Counted from the first letter of the stretch, positions 3,147 through 8,060 are shown. The stretch: DNA of 8,060 nucleotides from a virus (IMGVR_UViG_2711768034_000011), one strand, 5' to 3'. Notes: a model not told the origin generated them from the letters alone. Program-made: numbers and translations.

Positions 3147-3365
3147 TCACAATCCCCATTGTTTGTTCTTAAGTTCGATCTCCTCCTGGCAACTTGCACA
3201 AGTCCGACAACCCTGAACGGCCAGGCGTCTTCGTTCATCTATGGGATCGCCACACTCACAACAATGAGTGGCAGATATAACCTGGTGGTTCAGACGACGC
3301 ATTTTTATTGCTGTATTGCGCTGTAATTCTTCGATTTCTGATGCTGAATCAATGATGTCTGCCAT
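3147..3365 (-). CDS. TraR/DksA-family C4 zinc-finger protein (72 aa), putative RNA polymerase-binding regulator
   Basis: Spacing C-x2-C-x17-C-x2-C (CCECGDPIDERRRLAVQGCRTCASC) typical of the DksA/TraR zinc finger; TraR-like proteins are common in lambdoid early-left operons (established knowledge). Confidence 0.8.
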   Translation of the reverse strand: MADIIDSASEIEELQRNTAIKMRRLNHQVISATHCCECGDPIDERRRLAVQGCRTCASCQEEIELKNKQWGL

Positions 3366-3371
3366 CTTCCA

Positions 3372-3467
3372 TTAATCCCTGAATTGTTGGTTAATACGCT
3401 TGAGGGTGAATGCGAATAATAAAAAAGGAGCCTGTAGCTCCCTGATGATTTTGCTTTTCATGTTCAT
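3372..3467 (-). CDS. Putative small ORF, 31 aa (MNMKSKIIRELQAPFLLFAFTLKRINQQFRD), not in the supplied ORF track
   Basis: First ATG overlaps the stop of the upstream 72-aa gene as ATGA; AAGGAG lies 8 nt before the in-frame second ATG; its TAA stop is 6 nt before the TraR-like ATG. It encloses a hairpin plus U-tract, so it may instead be a terminator or attenuator. Confidence 0.3.
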   Translation of the reverse strand: MNMKSKIIRELQAPFLLFAFTLKRINQQFRD

Positions 3468-3679
3468 CGCTCCTTAAAGACGCCGTTTAACATGCCGATC
3501 GCCAGGCTTAAATGAGTCGGTGTGAATCCCATCAGCGTTACCGTTTCGCGGTGCTTCTTCAGTACGCTACGGCAAATGTCATCGACGTTTTTATCCGGAA
3601 ACTGCTGTCTGGCTTTTTTGATTTCAGAATTAGCCTGACGGGCTATGCTGCGAAGGGCGTTTTCCTGCTGAGGTGTCAT
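3464..3679 (-). CDS. Hypothetical phage protein, 72 aa from ATG at 3679 (listed ORF extends to a TTG at 3778)
   Basis: ATG at 3679 overlaps the stop of the upstream 27-aa ORF (ATGA); its stop overlaps the start of the downstream small ORF (ATGA). Product MTPQQENALRSIARQANSEIKKARQQF... is not recognised. Confidence 0.55.
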   Translation of the reverse strand: MTPQQENALRSIARQANSEIKKARQQFPDKNVDDICRSVLKKHRETVTLMGFTPTHLSLAIGMLNGVFKER

Positions 3680-3759
3680 TGAACAAGTCCCATGTCGGCA
3701 AGCATAAGCACACAGAATATGAAGCCCGCTGCCAGAAAAATGCATTCCGTGGTTGTCAT
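3676..3759 (-). CDS. Putative small hydrophobic peptide, 27 aa (MTTTECIFLAAGFIFCVLMLADMGLVQ), not in the supplied ORF track
   Basis: Strong SD GGGAGG (3764-3769) 4 nt upstream of the ATG at 3759; ATG overlaps the methyltransferase stop (ATGA) and its TGA overlaps the next gene ATG (ATGA); hydrophobic core long enough for one membrane helix. Confidence 0.4.
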   Translation of the reverse strand: MTTTECIFLAAGFIFCVLMLADMGLVQ

Positions 3760-4313
3760 GCAGCCTCCCGACGGGCAAGAATCCTTGAGCCGAACGCCAT
3801 CAACTCTCCACGATCAACGGTCGTAAAGTGGCAGTGTGTACGGGGGTATGGGTGCCAGATAATGAGCATCGAGCCTTTATTATTTCCACTGACGGGTTTC
3901 TCAGTGAGTGGGTTAATAAATGCCAGTCGTCCTGCCGTGATGAATCTGACCTCACTGGCGGTTTGTATCGCTTCATGAAACCATCCGACAGATGTGTCAG
4001 CAGGCAATAACATTACACATCCCACACTACTGAATTTGTTTTCAGTGGCTGCCTTTTTCACAAAAGGGGAAATATTGCTGTATGGTGGATTCAACCAGAC
4101 ATAACCAGAGGCATATCCCATTGCTTCAGGCCATGAAGTGGTTAATGTGTTCTGCTCCTGTGAGATAAAAAGCCGACATAGTCGGTTTTTTTCGCTGGCT
4201 GCAGCATCAAGTTGAAAAACGAACTCTGCATTAAGCGCAGCAAAAATCTCTGGTGGTGTGCGCCAGCTGTCGCGATGTTCGGCAGGAGTATTGCTTCCGG
4301 TGAAATCAGTCAT
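3756..4313 (-). CDS. Phage-type DNA N6-adenine methyltransferase (185 aa)
   Basis: NPPY catalytic motif (WLNPPYSN) and N-terminal W-x-TPPEIF...LDAAAS pattern typical of the phage N-6-adenine methyltransferase family; no adjacent restriction endonuclease gene. Confidence 0.85.
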   Translation of the reverse strand: MTDFTGSNTPAEHRDSWRTPPEIFAALNAEFVFQLDAAASEKNRLCRLFISQEQNTLTTSWPEAMGYASGYVWLNPPYSNISPFVKKAATENKFSSVGCVMLLPADTSVGWFHEAIQTASEVRFITAGRLAFINPLTEKPVSGNNKGSMLIIWHPYPRTHCHFTTVDRGELMAFGSRILARREAA

Positions 4314-4369
4314 ACAGCCCCCCGTTTATTATTTATCTCCTCAGCCAGCCGCTGTGCTTTCAGTGGATT

Positions 4370-4403
4370 TCTGATAACAGAAAGGCCGGGAAATACCCAG
4401 CCT
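4370..4403 (-). terminator. Candidate intrinsic terminator between exo and the methyltransferase gene
   Basis: On the minus-strand transcript: AGGCUGGG-UAUUU-CCCGGCCU (8-bp stem including one G-U pair) followed by UUUCUGUUAUC, located 62 nt downstream of the exo stop. Confidence 0.4.
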
Positions 4404-4464
4404 CGCTTTGTAACGGAGTAGATGAAAGTGATCGCGCCTACCCGGATATTATCGCGAGGATGCT

Positions 4465-5145
4465 TCATCGCCATTGCTCCCCAAATACAAAACCAATTTC
4501 AGCCAGTGCCTCGTCCATTTTTTCGATGAACTCCGGCACCATCTCGTCAAAATTCGCCATGTACTTTTCATCCCGCTCAACCACGACATAATGCAGGCCT
4601 TCACGCTTCATGCGCGGGTCATAGTTGGCAAAGTACCAGGCATCTTTTCGCGTCACCCACATGCTGTACTGCACCTGGGCCATGTAAGCCGACTTTATGG
4701 CCTCGAAACCACCGAGCCGGAACTTCATGAAATCCCGGGAGGTAAACGGGCATTTCAGCTCAAGGCCATTGCCGTCACTGCATAAACCATCGGGAGAGCA
4801 GGCGGTACGCATACTTTCGTCGCGATAGATGATCGGGGATTCAATAACATTCACGCCGGAAGTGAACTCAAACAGGGTTCTGGCGTCGTTCTCGTACTGT
4901 TTTCCCCATGCCAGCGCCTTAGCATTAACTTCCGTAGCCACACCGGTGCAAACCTCAGCCAGCAGGGTGTGGAAGTAGGACATTTTCATGTCAGGCCACT
5001 TCTTTCCGGAGCGGGGTTTTGCTATCACGTTGTGAACTTCTGAAGCGGTGATGACGCCGAGCCGTAATTTGTGCCACGCATCATCCCCTTGTTCGACAGC
5101 TCTCACATCGATCCCGGTACGCTGCAGGATAATGTCCGGTGTCAT
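4465..5145 (-). CDS. exo: Lambda-type exonuclease (Red alpha), 226 aa
   Basis: Near-identical to the phage lambda Exo sequence as I recall it ([40 protein letters not shown]...); 4-nt ATGA overlap with bet as in lambda. Confidence 0.95.
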
Positions 5146-6448: not shown

Positions 6449-6581
6449 TTTTTGGGACTCCTGGCTGATTAAGTATGTCGATAAGGCGTTTCCATCCGTC
6501 ACGTAATTTACGGGTGATTCGTTCAAGTAAAGATTCGGAAGGGCAGCCAGCAACAGGCCACCCTGCAATGGCATATTGCAT
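6417..6581 (-). CDS. cIII: Lambda-type CIII (FtsH/HflB inhibitor), 54 aa
   Basis: Below the ORF-track length cutoff. Manual translation of the minus strand from the ATG at 6581 gives MQYAIAGWPVAGCP... and ends ...[15 protein letters not shown] with TAA at 6417-6419; AAGGAG SD 7 nt upstream; 32-nt overlap with kil as in lambda. Confidence 0.85.
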   Translation of the reverse strand: MQYAIAGWPVAGCPSESLLERITRKLRDGWKRLIDILNQPGVPKNGSNTYGYPD

Positions 6582-6653
6582 GGTGTGCTCCTTATTTATA
6601 CATAACGAAAAACGCCTCGAGTGAAGCGTTATTGGTATGCGGTAACGCCGCGC

Positions 6654-7763: not shown

Positions 7764-8060
7764 GGTAATGACTCCAACTTATTGATAGTGTTTTATGTTC
7801 AGATAATGCCCGATGACTTTGTCATGCAGCTCCACCGATTTTGAGAACGACAGCGACTTCCGTCCCAGCCGTGCCAGGTGCTGCCTCAGATTCAGGTTAT
7901 GCCGCTCAATTCGCTGCGTATATCGCTTGCTGATTACGTGCAGCTTTCCCTTCAGGCGGGATTCATACAGCGGCCAGCCATCCGTCATCCATATCACCAC
8001 GTCAAAGGGTGACAGCAGGCTCATAAGACGCCCCAGCGTCGCCATAGTGCGCTCACCGAA
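7764..8060 (-). mobile_element. IS1, partial (right inverted-repeat end, 297 of about 768 bp; continues beyond the window)
   Basis: Begins with the IS1 terminal inverted repeat GGTAATGACTCCAACTTATTGAT at 7764 and contains the insB 3' coding region on the minus strand. Confidence 0.95.
7779..8060 (-). CDS. insB: IS1 transposase InsB, 3' portion (5' end lies beyond the window)
   Basis: Translation ...[93 protein letters not shown] matches IS1 InsB as recalled. Confidence 0.9.

Follow-up and report, generated by a model that had tools for sequence, protein, structure and literature searches.

Genomic Context of the Locus

The stretch of DNA analysed here (the window, 8,060 nucleotides; IMGVR_UViG_2711768034_000011) runs from proA through tRNA-Thr(CGU) (1369-1444) into a lambdoid prophage at thrW. 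All of the phage genes in the window lie on the minus strand, and their order is that of the lambda pL operon:

Minus strand, first part of the operon: cIII, kil, gam, bet, exo
Minus strand, next part: DUF1317/orf60a-like gene, adenine methyltransferase, 71-residue gene (3681..3464), 31-codon ORF
Minus strand, last part: TraR/DksA-like gene (3365..3147), DUF4222 gene, HTH/xis-like gene, tyrosine integrase

The tyrosine integrase is presumably like that of phage P22. The 661 nt surrounding the 31-codon ORF are ~97% identical to phage lambda 30,418-31,008, and this lambda-type region is represented in 192 phage records; of 5,426 complete E. coli genomes, 3,325 carry it. Elsewhere in the operon, the cIII thermoregulator gives a full-length Rfam match (RF01804, 88.5 bits; 6536-6594, minus strand), and the adenine methyltransferase ORF (3756-4313, minus strand, 185 residues) is intact; an identical sequence in strain 14EC001 is flagged as "frameshifted" by PGAP. 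Upstream of cIII lies an 88-residue ORF (7779-8045, minus strand), which we take to resemble the InsB transposase of IS1. This InsB-like ORF is placed to interrupt the early-left operon, and pL and N may therefore be separated from the phage genes; given its position, the prophage may be defective.

The elements around the small ORF are as follows:

3464..3681, minus strand: upstream gene of 71 residues, corresponding to lambda orf61 in intact form
3470..3475, minus strand: Shine-Dalgarno (SD) sequence AAGGAG, within the last codons of the upstream gene
3465..3467, minus strand: first in-frame ATG, at which the 31-codon form begins; many relatives have GTG or GTT here, and it is not conserved
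3372..3461, minus strand: conserved small gene, 29 codons plus stop, MKSKIIRELQAPFLLFAFTLKRINQQFRD; homologous to lambda 30709..30620
3425..3443, minus strand: putative terminator hairpin, AGGGAGCU-ACA-GGCUCCUU, 8 pairs including a G.U, core GGAGC/GCUCC
3413..3426, minus strand: U-tract UUUUUUAUUAUUCG (U6 = 3426..3421, U6AUUAUU), encoding part of Pro-Phe-Leu
3349..3372, minus strand: 7-codon ORF MEDGRHH*, starting in a TAATG overlap with the stop of the small gene
3147..3365, minus strand: downstream TraR/DksA-like gene, a homolog of lambda orf73

The upstream gene, to which the initial annotation had assigned 72 residues, encodes 71. Its A6 run (3614-3619, minus strand) is also found in phage 21 and most relatives, and is A7 in reference lambda. 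Because of this extra A, orf61 is frameshifted and truncated in reference lambda, which breaks the coupling of orf61 to the small ORF there. On the downstream side, the 7-codon ORF overlaps the start of the TraR-like gene, and its lambda version, MKDGRHH*, lies at 30620..30597. The product of lambda orf73 binds RNA polymerase and inhibits rRNA promoters (PMC9239242).

The Small Gene

The 31-codon ORF (3467..3372, minus strand) has the translation MNMKSKIIRELQAPFLLFAFTLKRINQQFRD. As initially annotated, its ATG (3467..3465) and the TGA that ends the upstream gene (3466..3464) overlap as ATGA, and its own stop TAA (3374..3372) ends 6 nt before the ATG of the TraR-like gene at 3365. The ORF is thus present at the annotated length of 31 codons, but its conserved form is shorter. 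The second in-frame ATG (3461..3459) is invariant in relatives and aligns with the single start of distant homologs, and because this second ATG is the conserved start, the gene has 29 codons. The AAGGAG sequence is spaced 8 nt from the conserved ATG (3461) and 2 nt from the first ATG; lambda-type relatives carry AAGGAG or AAGGAA at this place in all but one case (AAGGAT).

The lambda copy of the 31-codon ORF lies at 30715..30620 and encodes a peptide identical to that of the window. The RefSeq annotation of lambda and of E. coli genomes does not include the small ORF, and in some GenBank phage records the 29-residue form is listed as a protein, either hypothetical or "putative secreted". According to a 2021 review (PMC8614690), ribosome profiling of lambda (Liu et al., 2013) detected two additional translated ORFs in the conserved exo-xis block, orf2311 and orf2313, of 7 and 31 residues. 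The lambda block contains exactly one 31-codon ATG ORF, with a 7-codon ORF adjoining. Judged by size and position, the small ORF is very probably lambda orf2313, and the 7-codon ORF is probably lambda orf2311. In the literature searched, neither a published function of orf2313 nor a published link between it and a terminator was found.

The peptide is basic (+4 to +8) and amphipathic. AlphaFold2 predicts a single helix over residues 3-30 (pLDDT 93), which is uninformative on function, and a transmembrane peptide was rejected, as the best 19-residue hydropathy window scores below 1.0. Four peptide variants were compared with Pfam and PHROGs and matched no family in either. A HMMER search of 1.84 billion representatives returned 7 matches: six are close relatives (61-100% identity), and the last, a 196-residue protein, matches weakly and in part, with 54% identity across residues 3-18. 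No functional clue was found among these 7.

The Hairpin Within the Small Gene

The GGAGC/GCUCC stem described in the initial annotation was located at 3441..3437 and 3431..3427, followed by the U6 that it had read from the plus-strand A6 (3421-3426). A terminator scan extends the stem to 8 pairs (4 G-C) around the 3-nt loop ACA, with the tail UUUUAUUAUU. With the A of the AUG as +1, the stem occupies +19..+36, the U6 +37..+42 and the stop codon +88..+90; the hairpin and U-tract span codons 7-14. The features of an intrinsic terminator, namely a short loop closed by five or more pairs in a G+C-rich stem and, directly 3' of the stem, a U-tract, are all found here, and transcript 3' ends would be expected at ~3425-3417.

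In the window alone the hairpin is modest, even weak: its 56-nt fold has a free energy of -10.7 kcal/mol (z = -2.1), 6 of 200 shuffles are as stable, and 19 terminator-like sites are observed in the window against 8.8 expected. Its non-chance status rests on the relatives described below. In a 161-nt fold the terminator hairpin is retained and no competing helix appears, and no Rfam family was found at the hairpin site. The segment of 18 nt that leads from the start codon to the stem is A-rich (AUGAAAAGCAAAAUCAUC) and holds no U-run of the kind that serves as a pause site in pyrBI.

The strongest terminator-like hairpin in the window lies elsewhere, at 4382-4404 (minus strand; GAGGCUGGG-UAUUU-CCCGGCCUU; 56-nt fold -20.9 kcal/mol, z = -4.2), inside a DUF1317/orf60a-like ORF (4474..4310) ~900 nt upstream of the small ORF. 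Given a tL3 coordinate of ~31,262 and the pKD46 fragment, this hairpin is probably the classical tL3. Whereas the window hairpin at 3425..3443 is known from sequence, tL3 was reportedly characterised experimentally, by Luk and Szybalski in 1982. Like tL3 and the other N-suppressible terminators of the pL operon (tL1, tL2a-d, tI), the hairpin in the small gene would be an intrinsic terminator within an N-antiterminated operon, and like the likely tL3 at 4404..4382 it lies within a coding sequence. Since the 4404..4382 hairpin is also inside a coding sequence, intragenic terminators seem to be normal in the pL operon. The same 4404..4382 hairpin maps to lambda 31287..31265 and is the predicted terminator t1 of Bloch et al. 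(2014; PMC4195576).

The hairpin in the small gene has likewise been predicted before. Bloch et al. (2014) list t2 (t2_lambda and t2_24B), a terminator predicted with ARNold between orf61 and orf73 at -8.3 kcal/mol (PMC4195576, Table 4), and the window hairpin with its U6 matches t2 base for base (38-nt string; AAAATCATCAGGGAGCT ACA GGCTCCTTTTTTATTATT), in the same position and between the same neighbours. That paper treats the region as intergenic and does not mention that the hairpin is inside a translated ORF, and its prediction was made without comparative or covariation data and without 3'-end mapping (PMC4195576). For lambda, therefore, the parts are already known separately: the hairpin as t2, the ORF very probably as orf2313 (PMC8614690) and the TraR-like gene as orf73. 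What is new is the coincidence of ORF and terminator, the selection on both, and the wide distribution of the unit.

Comparative Sample

A first viral scan returned 21 lambda-type variants, which are near-identical and thus too similar to be informative alone. Distant homologs were found in the Enterobacter phages BHUENT3 and ENT1, in one P22-like Salmonella phage and in at least 120 IMG/VR contigs, the latter retrieved with a back-translated C-terminal motif. A second scan was anchored on the N-terminus of the TraR-like protein, giving a sample unbiased for the small ORF. The two scans were pooled into 166 distinct contexts from lambda-like, Enterobacter and Salmonella phages. A tblastn match in MT835880 was set aside, having no recognisable homolog when inspected. 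A scan of genome contigs with the 71-residue upstream protein was also discarded, as it yielded mostly phage-lambda DNA in unrelated assemblies and no useful diversity; lambda sequence with the lambda-specific frameshift was seen in Shewanella, Bradyrhizobium, Paenibacillus, Kitasatospora and Enterococcus assemblies (L009-L022, L024-L026). Lambda DNA in such species-representative genomes is almost certainly laboratory or spike-in contamination.

Selection on the Peptide and on the Hairpin

Column entropy in the alignment, ~1.6 bits beforehand, falls under 0.9 precisely at the start codon, which is kept in 164 of the 166 contexts (tallied elsewhere as 162 ATG and 4 GTG), and the peptide is 29-32 residues long in 158 of the 166. 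Within the C-terminal core, PFLLLAFTFNRINRQF, variation falls at third positions. Counted from loci not ascertained through the peptide, synonymous and non-synonymous variant types in the C-terminal part stand at 7:2 in the lambda-type (p = 0.0014) and at 15:20 in the distant type (p = 0.048), where the last three codons, also the SD of the following gene, hold 12 of the 20 non-synonymous types. This pattern indicates that the C-terminal two thirds of the peptide (PFLL.AFT..RIN.QF) is under protein-level purifying selection. A conserved antisense ORF on the plus strand (3400..3477), which shares wobble positions with the small gene, was considered and rejected: stop codons close its frame in 65 of 166 contexts.

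The hairpin was compared over 56 distinct segments, which fall into four stem-sequence classes:

GGGAGCU-UAA-GGCUCCC
AGGGAGCU-ACA-GGCUCCUU
AGGUCGC-NNNN-GCGGCCU (GGUCGC/GCGGCC)
AAGGCCUCU-UAA-AGAGGCUU (GGCCUCU/AGAGGCU)

Folds of -7 kcal/mol or better are found in ~89% of the 56 distinct segments, against 9.7% of shuffles. The hairpin in relatives has 6-9 pairs and loops of 3-6 nt, and 89% of the distinct variants have energies between -7 and -12.7 kcal/mol; the distant homologs have the stronger stems (-10 to -12.7 kcal/mol). U5-6 follows the stem directly in all stem classes and is near-invariant in 115 variants. Where the classes could be aligned in one register, 89% of cells are paired and three pairs are changed on both sides, giving a covariation score of 0.273, compared with 0.142 for shuffles, that was reached by 0 of 500 shuffles and by no slid control; class B alone has too little variation for a covariation test.

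The codons over the same segment behave differently from those of the C-terminal part. The residues encoded over the hairpin differ completely between classes (RELKAP, RSLSRP, RPLKEA), and the ratio of synonymous to non-synonymous types over the hairpin codons, 8:14, is neutral (expected synonymous fraction 0.34). Within the U-tract, Phe is encoded by TTT in 115 of 115 variants, and the other Phe codons of the ORF are mostly TTC. These data argue that the hairpin is selected as an RNA structure, over which the peptide drifts neutrally, and from these sequence comparisons we take it to be a real intrinsic terminator for unmodified RNA polymerase. The initial annotation had offered a small gene and a terminator as alternatives and had proposed to weigh compensatory stem changes against codon conservation. 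Both of its candidates survive that comparison, with a stem that is kept through four sequences and C-terminal codons that are conserved, and it is the exclusive choice between them that falls, as both are under selection. The conservation of the stem in relatives, which it had made a condition of its reading, is seen as a structure kept across complete changes of stem sequence.

Coupling and Mosaic Flanks

The geometry of the unit is maintained at both ends. Of the 166 contexts, 102 have the upstream stop in the ATGA overlap and 43 have it ending 2 nt ahead of the start, and the distance from the end of the upstream stop to the stem is 14-15 nt in the distant type and 20-22 nt in the lambda-type. 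The next ATG follows the stop of the ORF by 2 nt in 107 of the 166 contexts and by 6 nt in the lambda-type, and the last codons of the ORF supply the SD of the downstream gene.

The neighbouring genes, on the other hand, are mosaic, with 24 unrelated families upstream of the unit and 12 families downstream. The upstream families (IMG/VR loci L112-L302) include Orf63/DUF1382-like genes and cytosine methyltransferases. Among 114 loci sampled without bias for the downstream gene, a TraR-like gene follows in 77 (~68%); about one third of loci have a different downstream gene, and the unit is not tied to any one gene. The small-ORF unit thus marks a recurrent mosaic junction in early-left operons.

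The Shigella phage POCJ13 (L107, ~1165-1190) has a different arrangement. Its canonical terminator, AAAGGAGC-UUCG-GCUCCUUUUUU followed by U6, stands directly before the TraR-like gene in an intergenic position right after an antirepressor gene, without the small ORF, and has the same stem core (GGAGC/GCUCC) as lambda. Because POCJ13 has the terminator without the ORF, the ORF is unnecessary for a terminator at the TraR-like position.

A Candidate Dual-Purpose Unit of the pL Operon

The reading that we favour, and to which we give a somewhat better than even chance, is that of a dual-purpose unit of the lambdoid pL operon, in which a translated small gene, an internal terminator and coupling at both ends are combined. 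The ORF, the hairpin, the conservation and covariation, and the coupling geometry are seen directly in the sequences compared. RNA polymerase without the phage antiterminator would stop at the hairpin, and what lies beyond it, first the TraR-like gene and after it xis and int, would not be expressed. Coming from the upstream gene, the leading ribosome could sit 14-22 nt from the stem or enter it, so that termination efficiency may fall when translation and transcription are tightly coupled and rise when they are not. Such attenuation would be pyrBI-like and of a surveillance type, without an antiterminator structure. During lytic growth, N-modified polymerase would read through, and ribosomes would cross the melted hairpin and be handed over to the TraR-like gene. 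We infer actual termination, its dependence on translation and its override by N.

The precedents for translation-sensitive termination come from two systems. In the E. coli pyrBI attenuator (Turnbough 1983; Roland 1988; also discussed in PMC4824070), the leading ribosome physically blocks folding of the terminator hairpin. At lambda tR2, termination is repressed when a ribosome occupies a stop codon close by. With 17-18 nt in between, the response is intermediate and varies with the sequence, beyond ~27-30 nt it is at its maximum, and the repression is abolished when translation is uncoupled from transcription (PMC4824070). In the same work, terminators inside coding regions were tested and a role in translational surveillance was proposed (PMC4824070). 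Given the tR2 experiments and the pyrBI precedent, translation-sensitive termination is reasonable here, and a pyrBI-type response is mechanistically plausible by analogy.

As in pyrBI, a short translated ORF runs through an intrinsic terminator, with the reading frame extending through the whole of the hairpin, and no antiterminator hairpin is needed. The two systems differ in several respects. The pyrBI leader has UTP-sensitive, U-rich pause sites, whereas the segment before the window hairpin is A-rich; the pyrBI leader starts its transcript, whereas the unit described here would be fed with ribosomes from the upstream gene; and the unit has a conserved peptide and belongs to a phage operon with protein-mediated antitermination. 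The trp and his attenuators share with it a short ORF that lies upstream of the regulated gene and overlaps a terminator. However, no peptide variant contains the runs of regulatory codons that characterise trp and his, and no conserved alternative antiterminator pairing was found among the upstream sequences, which belong to 24 unrelated genes. For these two reasons, the unit is better compared with the pyrBI or surveillance type than with trp or his.

N antitermination probably overrides the terminator during lytic growth. Since antitermination by N or gp24 should suppress the terminator on the main pL transcript, the physiological window for attenuation is perhaps narrow. The conserved C-terminal peptide sequence, moreover, is not explained by a simple attenuator.

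Alternative Readings

The hairpin may be the only functional element, with the ORF serving passively to carry translation across, or having arisen by accident in an AT-rich spacer, and with a peptide that has no function of its own. This is unlikely. It would account for an N-terminal third of the peptide that drifts over a retained hairpin, for the POCJ13-type phages that have a terminator before the TraR-like gene without the ORF, and for a peptide that belongs to no known family. However, it does not predict a start codon kept in 164 of 166 contexts and conservation that begins there, nor the C-terminal synonymous excess, which includes CGA to AGA changes. Frameshift variants are also rare (one locus was noticed, in the lambda-type set compiled first), the antisense frame has not stayed open, and translation of the ORF in lambda has been reported (PMC8614690).

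The converse, that the small protein gene is all that matters and that the hairpin is an mRNA-stabilising or processing structure, or slows ribosomes, without being an effective terminator, we also consider improbable. N antitermination is established as acting on the pL operon, and the lambda-type hairpin has a stability of only ~-8 to -10 kcal/mol. The published transcript data bear on both sides of the question. According to qRT-PCR, lambda mRNA of orf73, ea22 and ea8.5 is lower than that of orf60a, orf63 and orf61, the downstream drop expected of a terminator, whereas phi24B shows no such drop despite an identical hairpin, its orf73 and ea22 mRNA being as high as that of the upstream genes (PMC4195576). 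Against this reading, terminator hallmarks are conserved (the stem is GC-rich with 7-8 pairs, the loop has 3-4 nt and reaches 6 in some variants, and U5-6 follows directly), the U-tract is held even at synonymous sites, and the stems of distant homologs are stronger, at -10 to -12.7 kcal/mol.

The unit may also act throughout these phages as a leader peptide plus terminator, an attenuator that reads the translation capacity of the cell; we consider this decidedly unlikely. With ribosomes close behind the polymerase, the terminator would be masked and the TraR-like factor made, a ppGpp/DksA mimic by which rRNA promoters would be shut down; with lagging translation, transcription would end before the TraR-like gene. 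The override by N, the second intragenic terminator in the operon and the conserved peptide argue against a dedicated attenuator.

It is very unlikely that the segment is instead an element that makes or starts an RNA, either through a promoter, p1, that drives orf73 independently of pL, or through a terminator that forms the 3' end of an Hfq-binding RNA originating from the upstream mRNA. A stem-loop with a U-tract is the usual Hfq-binding module, and in this general sense the hairpin would suit such an RNA. BPROM predicts p1 as a sigma-70 promoter overlapping the hairpin (-35 TCATCA, -10 TTTTATTAT), and phi24B orf73 and ea22 are induced out of step with the upstream genes after H2O2 (PMC4195576). 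However, a consensus scan finds no promoter-like minus-strand site at the hairpin, the putative -10 is the U-tract itself, the -35 is not conserved in distant homologs, the site has no Rfam match, and the prophage sRNA literature checked (Pas sRNAs, HnrS) does not mention the locus.

Finally, it is barely credible that these ~100 nt are kept as a linker, a homologous-recombination site for swapping neighbouring modules: the 24 unrelated upstream and 12 downstream families that flank the unit speak for a linker, but start and stop codons would not be fixed in one, nor would its variation follow the codon period, show an excess of synonymous changes or include compensatory changes in the stem, and the mosaicism may be a consequence rather than a cause of the conservation.

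Implications

The favoured reading, that of a dual-purpose unit, would make the terminator ahead of orf73, so far taken as "intergenic", part of a conserved mini-gene that is translated and coupled to both of its neighbours, and would add to the known proteins an unannotated small family that is absent from Pfam, PHROGs and RefSeq annotation. The locus is also a clean natural case of RNA-structure and protein-coding constraints overlapping within 90 nt. Should the unit prove to sense translation capacity, it would link the supply of ribosomes and a phage regulator of their synthesis in a feedback loop. The gene just downstream of the unit encodes Orf73, which directly reprograms host RNA polymerase (PMC9239242), and the mini-gene with its terminator offers a testable model for the gating of entry into orf73, ea22, xis and int.
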